Below, piece by piece: positions 1 through 10,309 of a DNA stretch of 10,309 bases. Numbering within the stretch: position 1 is the stretch's first letter; each line of letters opens with the position of its first letter. The translations under genes were made by a program, and so were the position numbers. The DNA comes from a virus (lineage: Duplodnaviria > Heunggongvirae > Uroviricota > Caudoviricetes), in the IMG/VR virus record IMGVR_UViG_2859783438_000007; one strand, written 5' to 3'. The notes under the pieces were generated by a model that was not told where the DNA came from, made no database searches, and worked only from the letters and a program-made list of their open reading frames with translations.

Positions 1-31
1 GGTAAATCCCCCTGTTGGTAATGACTCCAAC

Positions 32-253
32 TTATTGATAGTGTTTTATGTTCAGATAATGCCCGATGACTTTGTCATGCAGCTCCACCGATTTTGAGAA
101 CGACAGCGACTTCCGTCCCAGCCGTGCCAGGTGCTGCCTCAGATTCAGGTTATGCCGCTCAATTCGCTGCGTATATCGCTTGCTGATTACGTGCAGCTTT
201 CCCTTCAGGCGGGATTCATACAGCGGCCAGCCATCCGTCATCCATATCACCAC
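32..253 (-). pseudogene. insB: IS1 insB, 3' fragment (last ~73 codons), fused in frame to the B' frame over insA by the internal deletion
   Basis: The C-terminal 73 aa of ORF 32..439 (-) match the InsB C-terminus. The N-terminal 62 aa are the alternative (B') frame across insA. The frameshift window and the InsB catalytic N-terminal region are deleted. Confidence 0.85.
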
Positions 254-254
254 G

Positions 255-410
255 CGTACCGGGTTGAGAAGCGGTGTAAGTGAACTGCAGTTGCCATGTT
301 TTACGGCAGTGAGAGCAGAGATAGCGCTGATGTCCGGCAGTGCTTTTGCCGTTACGCACCACCCCGTCAGTAGCTGAACAGGAGGGACAGCTGATAGAAA
401 CAGAAGCCAC
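255..410 (-). pseudogene. insA: IS1 insA, 5' portal of the gene only (first ~52 codons native, then out-of-frame junction)
   Basis: ORF 216..410 (-) begins [52 protein letters not shown], identical in character to IS1 InsA, then diverges ([12 protein letters not shown]) after the deletion junction. Confidence 0.85.
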
Positions 411-480
411 TGGAGCACCTCAAAAACACCATCATACACTAAATCAGTAAGTTGGCAGCATCACCTCATTCGTCTGTTCC

Positions 481-987
481 TTAAATCTTCCAGGAAATTT
501 CTGCATTGCCGTCAGCATCACCGGCACCTGTGAATTCAGCGTTGGTCAGCACCACGTTTTTGCCACTGACTGACGTGGACATGAATCCACCCAGCGGCAC
601 TTTGATGGATTCATCAGTGGAGACGACAACGTATACCGGATCGCCTTTTTTGATAGTGCTGGCATCAAAATCAGAACCGAGATTAACGGTCACGTAGCCA
701 CGCTTCATGGCGTCGCCCGGGAAGTTCTTGCCTGTTCCCACCTGGCGAACCATGTCCGGCTGCGACGTGGTCGGATAAGGGCGCACGTAGATCCCCTTCA
801 CCTTGTCTGCGGTATCACCATCTGCCAGCGGCACGAAAAAACCGTCATCATCGTATTTACCAGCCAGGCCATAGGCAGCGAAGGCGTTATCGGATTTAAG
901 GACCACCGGTTCGACGGTTAAGTCCTGCGGGCGAGAGACAGCCCCGGCAATGCCAACAGGCATCCGGTACAGAAATACATTATTCAT
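481..987 (-). CDS. phage head structural protein, possibly decoration-like (168 aa); family not recognised with certainty
   Basis: Complete ORF with ATG at 987 placed 3 nt after the TAA of the upstream gene, and AAGGG 7 nt upstream. It sits in the head module after the portal, F-like and scaffold/protease-like genes, where lambda-like layouts put a decoration protein before the major capsid gene. Gly/Asp/Val-rich and beta-rich in character. Function is inferred from position only. Confidence 0.45.
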   Translation of the reverse strand: MNNVFLYRMPVGIAGAVSRPQDLTVEPVVLKSDNAFAAYGLAGKYDDDGFFVPLADGDTADKVKGIYVRPYPTTSQPDMVRQVGTGKNFPGDAMKRGYVTVNLGSDFDASTIKKGDPVYVVVSTDESIKVPLGGFMSTSVSGKNVVLTNAEFTGAGDADGNAEISWKI

Positions 988-990
988 TTT

Positions 991-2211
991 TTACCCTTTA
1001 CGGTTTGCCCAGAATTCAGCGTTTTGTTTGTTCAGGGAAGCGATACTGGTCATGCCCATGTTTAGGCGCTGTGCATCGCCGGTGGTGGCGCGGGTGTTTC
1101 GCCCTTTGGCAACCTCAGACACGGCATTAAACGCCATGTCGACCGATTGTTTCGGTAATTTGCGGATATCCGCATCACCGACTATCTGGCGAACCAGCGT
1201 TTTGTCAGCAGAAGCCAGAACCTCGCGTTTGAACGCGGTCGGTTTCATCTTACGGCTCAGATCGATACCCGGAACGATAACTTCGGCACGCCAGGCTGAG
1301 TCACCAGTAATCGTGGTTTCCTCTTCATCGTCCTCGCCGTCACCGGTCGGATTATCGTCAGGCTTATTATCGTTATCGCCCGTGGCATTTCTTTCCAGCT
1401 TAGCCAGCAGGGCTTTCAGTAATGTTTTGAGGTCATCATCACTGTCGCCGGTTGGATCTCCGCCCATCTCTGGTGCTTTGTCCGGTAGTGGTTGCTGCGG
1501 GGACAGGTTGATGTTGAGATTAACGCCCTGCGGCAAATCCCCCTCATCTCCTGTAACCGATGCGGGAGCCGACTCCACCAGTTCGTTCATGGTGTCGGCA
1601 TCTCCTGTCTTGATGGCCGCACGCATGCGGTTCCACCAGTTTTTCTTTTGATTTGCCATTGTGTCTCTGTCTCCAATTGCACAACGATTTCCGGCTCTGC
1701 CTTTAGGGACAAGAGCCACATGGTTTCCGGTAATATCGACCTGCTCGGCTTTACCTGGCTCGGTCTGCTCGTACTCCGCGTCATAGCCGCACGACACTTC
1801 GCGCAGGCCATCTTCGATAAGCTGAATGGCGCTTTCGTCTTTGACGATAAGGTCAGCCAGCATCAAATCAGACTGCTCACCCGTCCCGCGCCGGACATTC
1901 TGGAGGTGCCCGACAGCAAGCTCTTTCCAGTTCTCGGGATTTACCAGCCGCACATTCCCGTTTTCATCTTCAGGATGCAGGATCGTGATGCTCATCCCTT
2001 CGAATGAGGCAAGCGTGGCCGGATGGAATACCTGCTCAGGAGAACGCGTGACGACTATTTCACCGAACTTATCGGGTTTCAGTTTTGGCAGGTCATCAGC
2101 ACCATAGAGCTGCTTACCTGTTCGTCCTATCGGCACGTCTTTGCACAGCAACGAGCCGTCAGCCAGGCGGTATCGGGTTTCCCCGAGCCTGGTCTCAAAA
2201 AAGTATTTCAT
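991..2211 (-). CDS. phage head-assembly protein (406 aa): N-terminal domain resembling DUF2213/XkdF-type putative prohead protease or scaffold, a central acidic TGD-repeat linker, and a C-terminal domain
   Basis: Complete ORF with ATG at 2211, 3 nt after the TAA of the F-like gene. It lies between the head-morphogenesis and small structural genes, as XkdF lies between portal and capsid in PBSX-type modules. Residues ~204-306 are highly acidic with a recurring T-G-D motif. Family assignment is from memory and unverified. Confidence 0.5.
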   Translation of the reverse strand: MKYFFETRLGETRYRLADGSLLCKDVPIGRTGKQLYGADDLPKLKPDKFGEIVVTRSPEQVFHPATLASFEGMSITILHPEDENGNVRLVNPENWKELAVGHLQNVRRGTGEQSDLMLADLIVKDESAIQLIEDGLREVSCGYDAEYEQTEPGKAEQVDITGNHVALVPKGRAGNRCAIGDRDTMANQKKNWWNRMRAAIKTGDADTMNELVESAPASVTGDEGDLPQGVNLNINLSPQQPLPDKAPEMGGDPTGDSDDDLKTLLKALLAKLERNATGDNDNKPDDNPTGDGEDDEEETTITGDSAWRAEVIVPGIDLSRKMKPTAFKREVLASADKTLVRQIVGDADIRKLPKQSVDMAFNAVSEVAKGRNTRATTGDAQRLNMGMTSIASLNKQNAEFWANRKG

Positions 2212-2214
2212 GGG

Positions 2215-2997
2215 TTATGCTGCCCTTTTCATTGCGAATGGAACGCGAACAAACACGATCTCTTTATAGCAGCGGCAGTTTGGCAGCTCGCCCGCGTGGC
2301 CGGTCATGCCGTCCAAAGTTGGAGGTGAATCCCAGCGGACGAATTTACCTTTCATGTGATCGTGGGAATCTCGGACATCGCCATCATCGGCTGTACGCCA
2401 AATATAACCATCCGAGCCAATAGCTATCGCTCGGGCCATATCCAGCGCGCCCGTTGCTCTTCCCAGTTCCGTTCGGGCAATCAGATCGGCCCTAGACTTA
2501 GCAACATCGCCGGTAGATGCAATCTCTTTAGCAAACTGCTCCGCCCGACCACCGGTGACAACAGCCTCTATCGCTTTGTTCTGGATGTCGTACACCCTGT
2601 CTGCGGCCTCGAGAGGCAGAGATTTGATGTACTTGACCTGTTCGGCGATGATGGATTGCATCACCTGGCCCACAGGAGCGCTTTCCACAAGATTGCGGAG
2701 CTCGCGACTGATGTTCTTGCTGTGTTGCCGCCAAACTTTCTCGTTCTGCCGGGTTAGGTCCGCAGTAAAGTTTTCCGCGACCTTTGTCGCCCAGGGGGTG
2801 ATGATTTCACTGTAACGCTCCAGCGCCGCAATAATTTCCGTGATACTGTCATTTGAACCATCGTAGCGACCATTTACGATGTCTCCGACCGCCCTCGCTA
2901 TCCTGCGTAGGCTGGTTCGATACCGGATTTCCGCCTGACGGCTCCTGCGGTTCGTCATCAGGTTCGCCGATGCCGGGCGGCGCTTCATCTTCGGCAT
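2215..2997 (-). CDS. phage head morphogenesis protein, Mu F / SPP1 gp7 family (260 aa)
   Basis: C-terminal region has the character of the Phage_Mu_F domain (…ADLIARTELGRATG…YIWRTADDGDVRDSHDHMKGKFVRWD…LPNCRCYKEIV…). ATG at 2997 has GAGGA 8 nt upstream; alternative ATGs lie at 2988 and 2958. The 5' end overlaps the portal 3' end by 149 nt in another frame. Confidence 0.8.
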   Translation of the reverse strand: MPKMKRRPASANLMTNRRSRQAEIRYRTSLRRIARAVGDIVNGRYDGSNDSITEIIAALERYSEIITPWATKVAENFTADLTRQNEKVWRQHSKNISRELRNLVESAPVGQVMQSIIAEQVKYIKSLPLEAADRVYDIQNKAIEAVVTGGRAEQFAKEIASTGDVAKSRADLIARTELGRATGALDMARAIAIGSDGYIWRTADDGDVRDSHDHMKGKFVRWDSPPTLDGMTGHAGELPNCRCYKEIVFVRVPFAMKRAA

Positions 2998-4315
2998 TCT
3001 CGATGTCCTCGTCGGTAATGGATGCCCCGATGCCGGTTACGTCAGAATTTTCTCGCAAATCAGTCATAGCGGCTTTCAGTGTCATCAGACCATCACCCAG
3101 CGCCGTACTGATTGCGTTGGTGGTGTTTAACGCCACCGTTGAGCGATCGACATCAGACATTTGCCAGAGCGGGTTAAACTCAAACGTGAAATCGTCCGGC
3201 AGCGGCTTGCCAAGTTCCGAACGATGCATGATGTCCAGTATCCGCCGCACCGGAAGACGTAAACGCCTCTCCTGCAACGAACTGATGCGATCGTAATAGT
3301 TGGCAAGGTCTGCATCACCGGTAGAAAATCCTTTCGGGGACTGTCCGAACAACCGCACCAGTGGGATACCAACAGCGCCACTAATCTGTTCTACAAACTG
3401 CGAAAGGATGTCATCCAGACCACTGAAGCTGTACTGATGGGTTTCAAACTTATCCCGCGAGTCCATGAGCGTCATGCCTTCATTACTCTGGAACTGTCGA
3501 ATCAGGTCGATATTCTTCAGCAACGCTTCATACGCAGGACCACCAAGTGCGATAAGCTCGCGTAGCTTCTCCACGCTGTAGGTACGCAAATGCGCCTTGT
3601 AGACCAGCTGCGCCGCGCCGACAGTAGCGCTGTCGAACGCGGTAAGACGATCCCAGATACGCTCTACAACCGACATTCCCCATTCGTTCTCGGTCATCTT
3701 CTGCTGAAATGGCAACGTGACGCCATCAAAGCGAATCAGGCGACTGTGATGAATGCGCCAGGCAGGAATTCCCGTTGCTGTGGTCACCACATCGTAAAAC
3801 TCAGGTTTACCCAGGTCCGGCCCCATATCTTTAATGCGGCGGGTCAGTGCCGGGTCGACCATCCAGCGGTCGAGCGGGAGAATCCCCTTAAACTTGCCCT
3901 TACCGATGGTTTCGGGTCGCAGCGGGGTCATTGGTGCCTACCCCTCAATCATGATGAAACCCACCGCGCCGCCGTAGAGGCGCGACCATTTCAGCACGTC
4001 ATTCAGCGCATCCCAGATTTGCAACTCATCCAGTTGTGATTCGAGAATGCCACGATCTTTTGCATCAATTTCCGAAGTGATGCGAATGCCTTTGCGGGTC
4101 ATATCATCCGGGATAGCATCGACTGCTTCGCCGATGATCTAGGATGAACGATAGGACCATTCCACCAGCATGCGGTTACGACTGGTGAAATTAGCCCGGT
4201 AGGTGGATGCTGAGTGCTGGTTAGGTGTCTGCATCCCTACGCGGGCAATAAAATTCTCATAACCATCAGCTGTGGCCTGCACAGTTCGCCGCAGGGCTTG
4301 TTTGTTTCGTGCCAT
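2849..4315 (-). pseudogene. phage portal protein gene, ~489-codon frame interrupted by two in-frame TAG codons (plus-strand coordinates 4139-4141 and 3938-3940)
   Basis: ATG at 4315-4313 overlaps the TerL TGA stop (TGATG). My manual translation of the minus strand gives MARNKQALRRTVQATADGYENFIARVGMQTPNQHSASTYRANFTSRNRMLVEWSYRSS-TAG-IIGEAVDAIPDDMTRKGIRITSEIDAKDRGILESQLDELQIWDALNDVLKWSRLYGGAVGFIMIEG-TAG-APMTPLRPETIGKG…, continuing into ORF 2849..3931 in the same frame (4315-3931 = 384 = 128 codons). The 128 codons upstream of 3931 contain no TAA or TGA. Size, position after TerL and the acidic C-terminal tail fit a portal. Confidence 0.7.
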
Positions 4316-5718
4316 CAGGCCTGTCTCCCCAGCTGTTCCCAGATATCCAGCGATGTATCGATTGGCGCGAAGGCCATAATGAATGCATCAGCAACGTTTG
4401 GTGACGGTATCTCGCGTTTTGCGAGGTCTTTTTTACTTTCGACCATCACACGTCCGTTACGGTCGAAATCACGATGAGGTGTTGTCAGTTCCAGTTTCAG
4501 CTTTTCAAGCAACGGACAACGAGAATCTATGCTGATCAGCTCATCCACAGGATACTGTTCTCCGTTGTTAATGGCGTTAAACGTATTTCTGAAACGGTCA
4601 GCCACCAGCCACCATGCCTGAGCCTTAAGATTTGCGAAAAAGTCTTTGTTGGGGATGCCGTTGTACTCGTCATCTGGCTCATGCACACCAGCACCGGCGT
4701 TAAACCTCTGGTAATTCACACGTCGCGCGTATGCGTTCTCGCTCTTCCGGTCAGCGTTAATTTCAGAGAATTTAGCACCGGCAGACGCACCAACACCGAT
4801 AGAGTCGTAAACAATATCTGCTTCACGCTCCAGCGCCGCCTGATAAGTACGCTGGCAGCTCTTCAGTAATTCATCTTCTTTGGCCTTCCATTCGTCGGCC
4901 CAGAAAACAACGGATCCGTGACGGTAAACGTTAGCGCACTTATCTGTACCACTGTCAGCCACGTCAAAGCCAATACGCTTTCTTCCACTGGGTTCGAAAT
5001 TTAACGTTTTGTGCGCATCCACTGCGGCTTCTATCCAAGACAGTTTGATGATTGCCGCATCATCATCAGACTCCGGAACGCCCTCATACACATGTTTAAA
5101 ACCATCCGGATCACGGCGTCGCGCCGCGTCGATAACCTTAAGCATGGTGTCAGACAGAAACGGATTTTCGTCATAGTTAATTTTGCGGATGAGAGTGCCT
5201 TCGGGCGGATCAACAACGAAGTTGCGCCAGACGAAATCAGTAACAAGTCCGGGGTTGAATATGAACCAGCATTCCGAACCCTCTTTACGGATCGTTGGCT
5301 CCAGAATTTTCCACTGGTATTCCGTCAGTGCGTGGGCTTCTTCCAGCCACAACACATCGATCCCCTCCAGTGACTTAATTTCTTCGATGTTGCGCCATAA
5401 TCCATAAAAAACAAATTCCGAGCCAGTAACCCGGTTAATGATTTTGTTGTTCAGAATACGGAAACGGTGCCGCAGACCAAACCTGTCTATCTGAATTTTG
5501 AGCAGGGTATACACCGACTCTTCGATTTTATTCTGGATCTGACGGGCACAACAAAAACGCAGGGTGTATTTATTCGACAGAAATATGGCAATGCCAGCGG
5601 CATCCCATGATTTTGACGATGACCGACCACCATAAAGCACTTTGTTACGTGCCCGCATAGTCCAGAAACTACGTAAAGCCGGATTCAGCGTCGGTTTGGA
5701 TGTCAGAGTAGAAGTCAT
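4315..5718 (-). CDS. phage terminase large subunit, PBSX-like family
   Basis: N-terminal block …LNPALRSFWTMRARNKVLYGGRSSSKSWDAAG… matches the deviant Walker-A region typical of PBSX-type large terminases; ~467 aa with an acidic C-terminal nuclease-like region. I chose ATG 5718 (MTSTLTSKPTLNPALR…, GGAGAG ~10 nt upstream). The ORF-track start at 5826 is a TTG; ATGs at 5757, 5745, 5742 and 5736 are alternatives. Confidence 0.85.
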   Translation of the reverse strand: MTSTLTSKPTLNPALRSFWTMRARNKVLYGGRSSSKSWDAAGIAIFLSNKYTLRFCCARQIQNKIEESVYTLLKIQIDRFGLRHRFRILNNKIINRVTGSEFVFYGLWRNIEEIKSLEGIDVLWLEEAHALTEYQWKILEPTIRKEGSECWFIFNPGLVTDFVWRNFVVDPPEGTLIRKINYDENPFLSDTMLKVIDAARRRDPDGFKHVYEGVPESDDDAAIIKLSWIEAAVDAHKTLNFEPSGRKRIGFDVADSGTDKCANVYRHGSVVFWADEWKAKEDELLKSCQRTYQAALEREADIVYDSIGVGASAGAKFSEINADRKSENAYARRVNYQRFNAGAGVHEPDDEYNGIPNKDFFANLKAQAWWLVADRFRNTFNAINNGEQYPVDELISIDSRCPLLEKLKLELTTPHRDFDRNGRVMVESKKDLAKREIPSPNVADAFIMAFAPIDTSLDIWEQLGRQA

Positions 5719-6433
5719 TGAGGTCACGCTCTCCATTGCCATCATCAATACCTGCATCACGGCGAAGACGATCAGCCTCCAGAGACACCTTATCAGTGGC
5801 GGCCTTGCGGTAGGCTGTATCAGCAAATATTTTTCCTACCGTCGCAAGCGTGCCAACGATGGACTCAATACGAACTGTATTGCGCATCATTGCTTTCTCG
5901 GCGGCGCTGATATTTTCAATCAGCATCTTCCTTTCCTGGTCCCCATTAGCATCTTCCAGCGACACCAACCACCGACCAATATTCTCTGCAGCGACAAGGT
6001 TGTTAGCACGAAGGCGAAATAATTCGTCCTCGAGCGTCAACGCTTTAGCGTCCTCTATCACCTCATCTTTGAGCAGAAGGCGACGGGCATAACCACCGTG
6101 TTTTAATGCCTGCTGGTTACCGGGTTGGAATGGGTTAGTCGGGGGATCGGTACGCATTCCGCGTATCGGTTTCGTATCCGGTGTAGATTCTGTTTTTAGT
6201 TGCGTACTTTTTTGTGTAAGGCCAGTAATGGCAGGCTTTCTGCTGGTACGCACTTTCCTTTTTTGCGTACCATTTTTGCAAACCTGCGTACCGCCACTGC
6301 GTGCCCAACCAAGCTTTTTGGCCCTCTTCCTGATAGCCCCTTCTGTAACGCCGTATTTCTCGCCTATATCACGGAGGCTAAGGACTCCGGCCCGGTATGC
6401 CGATTCGATGGCCTCCCAGTCCGGTTTTGCCAT
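5669..6433 (-). CDS. phage terminase small subunit (254 aa) with N-terminal helix-turn-helix
   Basis: Immediately upstream of TerL, overlapping it by ~50 nt. N-terminus MAKPDWEAIESAYRAGVLSLRDIGEKYGVTEGAIRKRAKKLGW is HTH-like, as in many small terminases. AGGAAG lies 7 nt upstream of the ATG at 6433. Stop is TAG at 5669-5671. Confidence 0.65.
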   Translation of the reverse strand: MAKPDWEAIESAYRAGVLSLRDIGEKYGVTEGAIRKRAKKLGWARSGGTQVCKNGTQKRKVRTSRKPAITGLTQKSTQLKTESTPDTKPIRGMRTDPPTNPFQPGNQQALKHGGYARRLLLKDEVIEDAKALTLEDELFRLRANNLVAAENIGRWLVSLEDANGDQERKMLIENISAAEKAMMRNTVRIESIVGTLATVGKIFADTAYRKAATDKVSLEADRLRRDAGIDDGNGERDLNDFYSDIQTDAESGFT

Positions 6434-6695
6434 GATTATGCTTCCTGTGATTTACTGTTATCGCTGCCTGTCACAATAGGTTGCTTTAATTCTTCCTCAT
6501 CACTCACTCCTGCGACGCTCCGTGGCAGGGCCCCCCACAGGAGTACCTTGTAAATGTAAGGTGTTTAAGCCTAAATTAAGTCGTATCACGGTTAAATAGC
6601 AAAGAAAAATTCACAGAAGGAAAGACATTGATGGAGTGGATAAATGCTTTGATGAACTATTTTGTACTTCATCCATATCGCCTATGTGAAGTGGC

Positions 6696-6822
6696 TGAAG
6701 TGGTCAACAAAAACTGGCCACCGAGTTAGAGTTTTTCCAGTATCGATTTTCCGATTCGTTTGGGGGTAACCCACCGTTATATTCGTGCGGTCTTAGTGCG
6801 CTGTAATATCCAACGATATAGT
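6696..6822 (-). mobile_element. IS911 right-end fragment, 127 bp, inverted relative to the complete IS911 at 8026-9274
   Basis: 6696-6822 is the exact reverse complement of 9148-9274 (…ctatatcgttggatattacagcgcactaagaccgcacgaatataacggtgggttacccccaaacgaatcggaaaatcgatactggaaaaactctaactcggtggccagtttttgttgaccacttca). The length equals the 127-bp overlap repeat seen at the first N gap. Confidence 0.85.
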
Positions 6823-7214
6823 AAGCTTAGTCAGCCGTTGTCTCCGGGTGTCGCGTGCGCAGTTGCACGTCATTCTCAGACGAACCGATGACTGGATGGA
6901 TGGCCGCCGCAGTCGTCACACTGATGATACGGATGTGCTTCTCCGTATACACCATGTTATCGGAGAGCTGCCCACGTATGGTTATCGTCGGGTATGGGCG
7001 CTGCTTCGCAGACAGGCAGAACTTGATGGTATGCCTGCGATCAATGCCAAACGTGTTTACCGGATCATGCGCCAGAATGCGCTGTTGCTTGAGCGAAAAC
7101 CTGCTGTACCGCCATCGAAACGGGCACATACAGGCAGAGTGGCTGTGAAAGAAAGTAATCAGCGATGGTGCTCTGACGGGTTCGAGTTCCGCTGTGATAA
7201 CGGAGAAAAACTGC

Positions 7215-7314
7215 NNNNNNNNNNNNNNNNNNNNNNNNNNNNNNNNNNNNNNNNNNNNNNNNNNNNNNNNNNNNNNNNNNNNNNNNNNNNNNNNNNNNNN
7301 NNNNNNNNNNNNNN
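7215..7314. other. assembly gap (100 N)
   Basis: Run of exactly 100 N, flanked by a perfect 127-bp direct repeat. Confidence 0.99.
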
Positions 7315-7441
7315 CTTGAGCGAAAACCTGCTGTACCGCCATCGAAACGGGCACATACAGGCAGAGTGGCTGTGAAAGAAAGTAATCAGCGATGGTGCTC
7401 TGACGGGTTCGAGTTCCGCTGTGATAACGGAGAAAAACTGC
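7315..7441. repeat. 127-bp perfect direct duplicate of 7088-7214 across the N gap (contig-end overlap artefact, not a biological repeat)
   Basis: 7088-7214 (cttgagcgaaaacctgctgtaccgcc…cggagaaaaactgc) is identical to 7315-7441. 127 is a common maximum k-mer size in de Bruijn assemblers. Confidence 0.85.
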
Positions 7442-7925
7442 GAGTCACGTTCGCGCTGGACTGCTGTGACCGTGAGGCACTGCACTGGGCGGTCACTACG
7501 GGCGGCTTCAACAGTGAAACAGTACAGGACGTCATGCTGGGAGCGGTGGAACGCCGCTTCGGCAACGAGCTTCCGGCGTCTCCAGTAGAGTGGCTGACGG
7601 ATAATGGTTCATGCTACCGGGCTAATGAAACACGGCAGTTTGCCCGGATGTTGGGGCTTGAACCGAAGAGCACGGCGGTGCGGAGTCCGGAGAGTAACGG
7701 CATAGCAGAGAGCTTCGTGAAAACGATAAAGCGTGACTACATCAGTGTCATGCCCAAACCAGACGGGTTAACGGCAGCAAAGAACCTTGCAGAGGCGTTC
7801 GAGCATTATAACGAATGGCATCCGCATAGTGCACTGGGTTATCGCTCGCCACGGGAATATCTACGGCAGCAAGCCAGTAATGGGTTAAGTGATAACAGGT
7901 GTCTGGAAATATAGGGGCAAATCCA

Positions 7926-8025
7926 NNNNNNNNNNNNNNNNNNNNNNNNNNNNNNNNNNNNNNNNNNNNNNNNNNNNNNNNNNNNNNNNNNNNNNNNNNN
8001 NNNNNNNNNNNNNNNNNNNNNNNNN
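7926..8025. other. assembly gap (100 N) between the IS2 right end and the IS911 left end
   Basis: Run of exactly 100 N; no flanking duplicate. Both flanks are IS termini. Confidence 0.99.
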
Positions 8026-8097
8026 TGAAGTGGCACACTGAATTTGGCCACCTGAACAGAGGTGATATGCTCACCTCAGAACAACACAGGTGCTCCA

Positions 8098-9266
<1,169 letters not shown>

Positions 9267-9274
9267 CCACTTCA

Positions 9275-9706
9275 TTACTGCAGTCTCTTCCTCACTGCTA
9301 AGCTCCCGAATCACTTTGCCCCGGGGATTCTTCTTTACAAGTATCATTGGCATAATGAAAGCACTCCTTATGTACATGCTTAAACAGTAAGTAAAATATA
9401 CAAAGAACACCCCATGAAACAAAGGCAGAGATGAACTGTGCGCCCCGATATCTTCTTCTGATATCCTTTCAAATGAATTGTTTTTATTTATATCATGACA
9501 ACATTAAAGTGAGAGAATATATCAACCATGTTTCTGTCAGGGTTCAGTAGAATATCAATTCGACTGTCACGCCATAACTGTTACTACCTCGAGTATAAAT
9601 ACTCAGAGAACGGACTTATTAGCCATGAAAAATCACCTGATGGGAAATTTACTAATTTATGAATTGTGATATTATTAAAGAGTAAAACCAGCCAGCCGAG
9701 GTATTT
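9275..9706 (+). promoter_or_regulatory. AT-rich non-coding region upstream of the FinO/ProQ-like gene (putative promoter/leader; possible small RNA or small ORFs)
   Basis: About 430 bp with no substantial ORF on either strand and visibly AT-rich. GAGG at 9698-9701 is a Shine-Dalgarno 5 nt before the ATG at 9707. No promoter was mapped. Confidence 0.3.
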
Positions 9707-10309
9707 ATGGGAAAAAATCAGGAAGAAAGGAAAACTCCCGTCATTGTGGTGAAAAAACGTCGTACTTTTTCGCCACCGTCCTTATCCGAAAAAACAGATA
9801 TTATCGCACCTGTATTTACTGAACAGACGGCAGAATCAGCCCCCGCCGGAATAAATTCATCTGCCGTCGAAACACATATCCCCGAAGCGCCAGCCAGGAA
9901 GAAGAAAAAGAAAAGACACCGTTTTCCACGTCCCTCCCACTGGACCCGTGAGTATACTCACGAGTGCGTGGAAAAAATAAAGGCCCTGTTTCCTCATCTT
10001 CGTGCTGAAGGTGGTGGATTTATTCCCCTGAAAATTGGCATAAACAATGATATATCGGCATTTCTGGCAGAACACCCGGAGACAGAACTGACCATGGACG
10101 AATGGCTCTGTGCAGTGTCCTGCATCACATCCCGCCGCGTATATCTGCAGCGGACAGCTGTCGCCGGCGTCCCACGTTATGGCCTGGATGGTCACCCCAA
10201 AGGGCAGGTCTCAGACTCTGAAGCACAGAGTGCCGGTCGCAGACTGGCGACATTAGAACAAAAGTGGCTCAGGATGCAGGCACAGCAGGAGAATATTTCT
10301 GGGCAATAA
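9707..10309 (+). CDS. ProQ/FinO-family RNA-binding protein (FinO-like, 200 aa): basic disordered N-terminus plus ProQ/FinO domain
   Basis: …IKALFPHLRAEGGGFIPLKIGINNDISAFLAEHPETELTMDEWLCAVSCITSRRVYLQRTAVAGVPRYGLDGHPKGQVSDSEAQSAGRRL… aligns by eye with the E. coli ProQ N-terminal domain (…[22 protein letters not shown]…[34 protein letters not shown]). The N-terminus (MGKNQEERKTPVIVVKKRR…KKKKKRHRFPR) resembles the basic N-terminus of F-plasmid FinO. Good SD; TAA stop at the window end. Confidence 0.85.
   Translation: MGKNQEERKTPVIVVKKRRTFSPPSLSEKTDIIAPVFTEQTAESAPAGINSSAVETHIPEAPARKKKKKRHRFPRPSHWTREYTHECVEKIKALFPHLRAEGGGFIPLKIGINNDISAFLAEHPETELTMDEWLCAVSCITSRRVYLQRTAVAGVPRYGLDGHPKGQVSDSEAQSAGRRLATLEQKWLRMQAQQENISGQ

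Follow-up and report, generated by a model that had tools for sequence, protein, structure and literature searches.

The open reading frame that closes the window (the whole 10,309-nt stretch of DNA analysed here) encodes, with a probability of about 0.9 as judged from its sequence, FopA (YafB), an RNA chaperone of the IncI1-type plasmid backbone. The gene, fopA (yafB), occupies positions 9707-10309 on the plus strand, running from ATG to TAA over 200 codons, and the last base of its stop codon is also the last base of the window. A ProQ/FinO domain, already recognized in the 200-residue translation by a preliminary description of this DNA, was recovered with Pfam model PF04352 at residues 84-186 (E 1.4e-12), and its 48 bits compare with a gathering score of 27, which is the cut-off for this family. 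PF04352 was the sole Pfam family found on the protein at E values up to 1, and the C-terminal domain of ProQ is lacking. In a phmmer comparison with PDB sequences, the N-terminal domain of E. coli ProQ (5nb9, E 1.5e-5) and Legionella RocC (7rgs, E 0.009) were matched, and the FinO-domain fold shared with these chromosomal proteins is thus detectable by sequence. No FinO-named chain was returned from the PDB sequences at E up to 1.

FopA was described from plasmid pCol1B9 of Salmonella Typhimurium SL1344 as a 22 kDa protein, formerly called YafB, whose gene is flanked by yafA and yagA (Gerovac et al. 2020, RNA 26:1448; PMC7491321). The window protein and the pCol1B9_SL1344 protein (WP_000517689.1) are of equal length and align without gaps, with 199 of the 200 residues identical. 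Their sole difference is residue 23, outside the FinO domain, which is proline here and leucine in SL1344 (P23L). Tyr146 and Arg157, both named in the published work, are present at the published positions (in RRVYLQR and GVPRYGL, respectively). The same work describes a distinct N-terminal domain with two basic stretches (PMC7491321), and two such stretches can be read in the translation, KKRR at residues 16-19 and RKKKKKRHR at residues 64-72. The basic N-terminus had initially been likened to that of FinO, a comparison that does not agree with the distinct domain described for FopA. Since the protein is 99.5% identical to a characterised one, its identity as FopA is regarded as settled, and the relation is one of membership rather than resemblance.

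Searches of genome collections place the gene on plasmids. The DNA from 9275 to 10309 is 100% identical to many plasmids typed as IncI1/B/O, IncK2/Z, and IncI-gamma, where the product is annotated as 'ProQ/FINO family protein'. The matching plasmid records number 1475, and 1367 of them are predicted to be conjugative. About a fifth of the complete E. coli genomes (1060 of 5426) contain a match, and 1129 of the 1140 matching places in them are on plasmids. Chromosomal copies of fopA are rare, being found at 11 of these 1140 places and also on one 3.5-Mb contig. No match was found when the phage collection was searched with the same segment. The fopA of the window is an already characterised and very common plasmid gene in an ordinary backbone context, and is in that sense already known.

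A comparison with FinO, ProQ, FopA, and RocC, proposed in the preliminary description, places the protein as FopA. It is neither FinO nor ProQ, because both NCBIfam models score far under their cut-offs: the FinO model (NF010317) reaches 25.7 bits against a cut-off of 136, and the ProQ equivalog (NF003434) 24.5 bits against 127. The gene could nevertheless be imagined to encode FinO proper, an F-like fertility inhibitor acting on FinP/traJ that had been displaced from its tra operon. The Pfam domain is common to both proteins, and the match to the FinO model, weak as it is, would fit such an origin. finO itself comes after traX and closes the F-type tra operon at its distal end. The window gene, in contrast, does not follow traX but stands beside yagA, and the related loci are IncI-type replication and stability backbones with MOBP/MPF_I transfer systems. 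Model scores and genomic context together rule out FinO proper, which is given next to no weight, and the initial view that this is not the finO end of an F-type tra operon is upheld.

Known FinO-domain systems differ from the window protein in function as well as in sequence. FinO of F-like (IncF) plasmids is likewise a plasmid-encoded chaperone of a cis-antisense pair, FinP/traJ, with a FinO/ProQ domain (PMC9977716), but its N-terminal region differs and it controls conjugation rather than replication. Chromosomal ProQ of E. coli and Salmonella regulates globally; the ligands of FopA form a narrow set centred on the plasmid (PMC7491321). PcnR (YaeC), which IncI2 plasmids such as pHNSHP45 encode, is the next relative after FopA; it too has a FinO domain and is ~198 aa long (PMC8053102). 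The basic N-terminal motif KTPVIVVKKRR is common to PcnR and the window protein; however, identity is 36% over 176 aa (for the protein of IncI2 plasmid p4222), and the window DNA matches IncI1/K/B/O plasmids. The gene for PcnR is found about 2 kb from the rep gene, and its product represses plasmid replication (PMC8053102). Reportedly, its target is a stem-loop of the repR leader mRNA, which it binds without involvement of the antisense RNA, instead of serving as a chaperone for Inc (PMC8053102, PMC9977716).

The surroundings of fopA in related plasmids are highly regular. In pHUSEC41-1, in pCol1B9, and around the identical protein in 10 distinct neighbourhoods, yagA on the minus strand is divergent from fopA on the plus strand, and fopA is followed by a RelE/ParE toxin-antitoxin pair and a rep gene of the IncFII_repA family. 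The start of the rep gene lies 2.4-2.9 kb past the fopA stop in all 10 neighbourhoods, and pil and transfer genes come next. On an ordinary IncI1 backbone, the sequence after 10309 would be expected to run on as ACACTCCTGATAACAGGTGGAC... into yafA, yacAB, and repZ. The segment yafA-yafB-yagA is recorded in the literature as a conserved part of the IncI1 backbone. Its yagA flank is seen in the window, as a yagA remnant followed by the native intergenic region, and its yafA flank falls beyond the window end. The gene had been called an orphan, a label that can be withdrawn, as fopA occupies its usual place in the IncI1 backbone, beside yagA. FinO-domain genes adjoining yagA are accordingly to be read as fopA and not as orphan finO. 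It had also been remarked that no conjugation genes are in view, which is true but uninformative, since the window stops at the fopA stop codon.

More distant homologues were observed in other settings. Two proteins with 65-69% identity to FopA are encoded at positions 5001-5618 of the loci L022 (NZ_CP149361.1) and L023 (NZ_CP047407.1), in each case co-directional with and following an AAA-ATPase gene. On the IncFIA plasmid pMS6193B, the homologue is ~2 kb from an IncFII-type repA with its tap leader peptide. These settings suggest that FopA-like proteins more widely accompany antisense-controlled replicons of the IncFII_repA family.

Upstream of fopA, a ~430-bp AT-rich non-coding leader had been proposed. 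Its AT-richness is borne out, with a GC content of 0.37 for 9275-9706 compared to 0.50 in the fopA coding sequence and 0.51 over the whole window, but its nature as a non-coding leader is not. By alignment, the stretch resolves into the truncated 5' end of yagA (9275-9353) and an intact native intergenic region (9354-9706). The yagA remnant lies on the minus strand, with its start codon at 9353, and retains the first 26 codons (MPMILVKKNPRGKVIRELSSEEETAV...) before it is cut by IS911. In pHUSEC41-1 the yagA coding sequence (WP_001132025.1) begins at the position homologous to 9353. When the window was aligned with pHUSEC41-1 and pCol1B9, identity was found from 9275 rightwards and no similarity leftwards. 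In both of these plasmids the divergent yagA begins 353 bp upstream of fopA. The corresponding region of the window is also 353 bp long, has a GC content of 0.35, and is 100% identical to pHUSEC41-1 and 99.8% identical to pCol1B9_SL1344. Because it is common to two divergent genes, it is not simply the leader of fopA; it presumably holds the promoters of both yagA and fopA, and the AT-rich stretch is to be read as a shared divergent promoter region.

Further comparison showed that the upstream region goes with yagA. It is homologous only where yagA is the neighbour, and is lacking upstream of fopA homologues without yagA. At one locus (L025), where FopA is 94.5% identical and a different gene is found upstream, only the last ~62 nt before fopA are conserved. 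No upstream similarity was detectable by blastn for FopA homologues of 49-69% identity.

The AT-rich region had also been put forward as a place for a cognate small RNA or a leader peptide working with the FinO-domain protein. RNAs encoded nearby are often targets of ProQ/FinO proteins, and the region, besides being AT-rich, is 100% conserved among close relatives. Open reading frames of 39 codons (at 9431) and 14 codons (at 9625), both pointed out in the preliminary description, do exist, together with a third of 44 codons (ORF9528). The tests performed nonetheless argue against either product, and the proposal is considered very improbable. A search of 9200-10309 against Rfam at E up to 10 gave nothing relevant, only two chance-level matches, and the whole window gave nothing relevant at gathering thresholds. 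Terminator-like hairpins, which it had been suggested to seek here, were not found within 9275-9706 by the terminator scan, and RNA folding of 9354-9706 gave a minimum free energy no better than that of shuffled sequences on either strand (z -0.27 and +0.95). In the related locus L026, whose upstream stretch is 96.5% identical, the stop codons of ORF9431 and ORF9528 are lost and the changes read in all three small frames are amino-acid replacements, so that the test of coding conservation failed and their interpretation as leader peptides falls away. Gene callers placed no gene in the yagA-fopA intergenic interval in any of 10 related loci. Moreover, as noted above, the region is missing upstream of fopA homologues that have no yagA neighbour, and the ligands named for FopA are Inc, repZ, STnc1590, mgtM, and STnc700 (PMC7491321).

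The terminator scan did return three sites, all inside the fopA coding sequence, compared to a shuffled expectation of 1.2 (sd 0.9), and this number is not clearly above chance. One of them is a hairpin followed by a T-run at 9909-9938 on the minus strand, antisense to a lysine-rich coding stretch; it is probably a by-product of the run of AAG and AAA codons.

Within the shared intergenic region, signals for the expression of fopA can be proposed from the sequence. A consensus scan gave a candidate fopA promoter at 9648-9675 on the plus strand, with a -35 element TTTACT (9648-9653), a TG (9667-9668), a -10 element TATTAT (9670-9675), and a 16-nt spacer. The scan found two promoter-like sites in the region against 2.0 expected in shuffled sequences, a number no higher than chance. 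Of the upstream sequence, it is this segment alone that L025 keeps despite having a different upstream gene, and the FopA homologues with 49-69% identity again have a TGATAT(T/A) element upstream. fopA is most likely served by a proximal promoter of its own within the final ~60 nt, for which the extended -10 element at 9667-9675 is a candidate. A Shine-Dalgarno sequence, GAGG, can be read at 9698-9701 on the plus strand, 5 nt before the ATG, and the motif GAGGT(A/T)TTTATG is conserved in the window, L025, L026, L022, and L023. The predicted 5' UTR of fopA would then be short, roughly 25-30 nt. A hybrid promoter derived from IS911 was considered and rejected; the outward-facing TTGACC at 9263-9268 lacks a suitably spaced hexamer resembling a -10 element, and the scan reported none. 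Induction of fopA has been described for late stationary phase and for SPI-2-inducing conditions (PMC7491321). No account was found in the literature of how this induction is controlled from the 353-bp AT-rich region.

The function of FopA has been studied with the pCol1B9 protein. RIP-seq reads were dominated by Inc, an antisense RNA of ~70 nt directed against the repZ leader, and the purified protein bound Inc, repZ, and the complex of the two (apparent Kd about 1 uM), the bound part of repZ being its 5' UTR (PMC7491321). FopA sped up the formation of the Inc-repZ duplex about sevenfold and protected Inc from RNase A; some chromosomal RNAs are also bound in Salmonella (PMC7491321). Pairing with Inc prevents the pseudoknot needed for repZ translation, and FopA in this way supports copy-number control (PMC9977716). 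According to this scheme, FopA would chaperone the pairing of Inc with repZ, the pseudoknot would be blocked, less replication initiator would be made, and the plasmid copy number would be held down. The mechanism was shown in Salmonella and is transferred to the window copy because the two proteins differ by one residue outside the FinO domain. By analogy, the near-identical window copy should act like pCol1B9 FopA if an Inc/repZ replicon is present in the cell.

This also bears on where the RNA partner is encoded. PK-repZ (RF01087), the element of Inc/repZ, was not found anywhere in the window with Rfam. In related plasmids this region, with which Inc pairs, is located 3.6 kb (L015) or 5.3 kb (pCol1B9) from fopA. 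Inc/repZ, like yafA and the toxin-antitoxin pair, is thus not visible here because the window ends at the fopA stop and the partner lies several kb beyond it in related plasmids. The proposal of a cognate RNA in the leader is not supported: Inc, the ligand that is known, pairs as an antisense RNA with the repZ leader and is encoded at that distance.

On its other side, the yagA remnant adjoins an IS911 element (IS3 family, 8026-9274, plus strand) that is essentially full length at 1249 bp. The element directly upstream had been correctly identified, and it ends at 9274. Its termini, which we take to be the IS911 inverted repeats, start with TGAAGTGGCACAC at 8026 on the left and end with ...GTTGACCACTTCA at 9274 on the right. 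It contains orfA (8062-8400) and orfB (8427-9266), which carry the Pfam domains HTH_Tnp_1 and rve. By blastn, 8026-9274 matches IS911 copies in the loci L010 and L004 at 99.9-100%, and plasmid matches over the same interval are annotated 'IS3-like element IS911 family transposase'. The exact junction between IS911 and yagA had no match among 72,556 plasmids, 5,426 complete E. coli genomes, species-representative genomes, and metagenome contigs. Because the junction is absent from all of the collections searched, the insertion is called private to the source strain.

Insertion near this site is common in related plasmids. In other IncI-type plasmids, yagA is interrupted or deleted at five other breakpoints (L013, L014, L018, L021, and L002, relative to L015 8201-10000), the elements involved including Tn3-type and IS3-family insertions. 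In L021, an ISL3-family transposase gene lies beside a breakpoint that reaches 40 bp into the yagA-fopA intergenic region. The literature likewise records ISEcp1 insertions within yagA and Tn3 insertions a short way downstream of the gene, with a Shigella sonnei plasmid among the Tn3 cases. In every yagA-interrupted plasmid examined, fopA was retained with at least 313 bp of upstream sequence. yagA is a recurrent, routine landing site for mobile elements, and the IS911 neighbourhood of fopA is not unusual. Compared to pCol1B9, the truncation of yagA by IS911 is particular to the window.

Two runs of N, each of exactly 100 nt, are present at 7215-7314 and 7926-8025. The first gap has the same 127 nt on either side (7088-7214 equals 7315-7441), and 6696-6822, again 127 nt, matches exactly the reverse complement of 9148-9274 at the end of IS911. 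The second contig ends on the last base of IS2 (7925), and the third begins on the first base of IS911. From this pattern, the window appears to be a short-read scaffold, or a path through an assembly graph, with k = 127. The real genome may be joined differently across IS2 and IS911, and only the IS911-yagA'-fopA junction falls in continuous sequence. The linkage of fopA to the sequence on the left, a prophage remnant, is not established, because the path crosses the two 100-N gaps and the 127-nt overlapping repeats.

If the scaffold is taken at face value, a different history for fopA can be imagined. An IS911-mediated rearrangement would have moved the yagA'-fopA segment from an IncI1 replicon into the chromosome, or into another plasmid, of an IS-rich Shigella-like host, beside the prophage remnant; FopA would then be separated from Inc/repZ, leaving it to act on Inc-like RNAs of the chromosome or to decay as a relic. 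In the window, fopA is indeed connected by way of IS911 and part of IS2 to a prophage remnant with 99.97-99.98% identity to chromosomal loci, and the IS911/yagA junction is unique among the plasmids and complete E. coli genomes searched. Chromosomal copies of fopA do exist, rare as they are, and FopA binds some chromosomal RNAs, as described above for Salmonella. Against this, the link passes through the gaps and the repeats overlapping by exactly 127 nt, intact plasmids match fopA and its whole 353-bp upstream region at 100% identity with nothing to indicate decay, and a rep gene follows fopA in each of the 10 neighbourhoods, including the one on the 3.5-Mb contig. This history is rated unlikely because its only evidence is a scaffold join through repeats. 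Somewhat less likely again is its more specific form, in which the copy cut loose by IS911, in the chromosome or in a non-IncI plasmid, is free to act on chromosomal Inc-like RNAs. Were it true, a copy-number chaperone would be expressed without Inc/repZ, which would represent an early step in the domestication of a plasmid FinO-domain protein. The preferred reading is that of fopA in its IncI1-type backbone, with a private IS911 insertion in yagA.

The prophage part of the scaffold has features of its own. Positions 1-6686 are 99.97-99.98% identical to a degraded prophage found on chromosomes of 4.8-5.0 Mb, and the prophage copies on those chromosomes are likewise cut by IS1. Only ~465 nt of IS1 are present at 1-465, with the segments 1-254 and 254-465 matching separate portions of the IS1 copies in L004; the short form reflects either an internal deletion or an assembly path that collapsed repeats. 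The chromosomal homology ends at 6686, inside a VTT-domain gene, and is followed by the 127 nt of inverted IS911 right end. After these the sequence resumes abruptly inside IS2 and continues up to the right terminus of that element at 7925. This join of IS911 to the interior of IS2 is not a normal insertion junction. Between the IS1 fragment and 6686, a degraded head module is encoded on the minus strand (466-6686), which comprises a cement/minor capsid gene (481-987), a DUF2213/Pa193_gp24 gene (991-2211), a Mu F-like gene (2215-2997), a portal gene, the large terminase gene (4315-5826), and a frame of 254 aa (5669-6433). The portal gene (2849-4315) is broken into open reading frames of 360, 54, and 58 aa, and the same breakage is seen in several of the chromosomal copies; the intact related prophages L006 and L009 encode a single portal protein of 488 aa.
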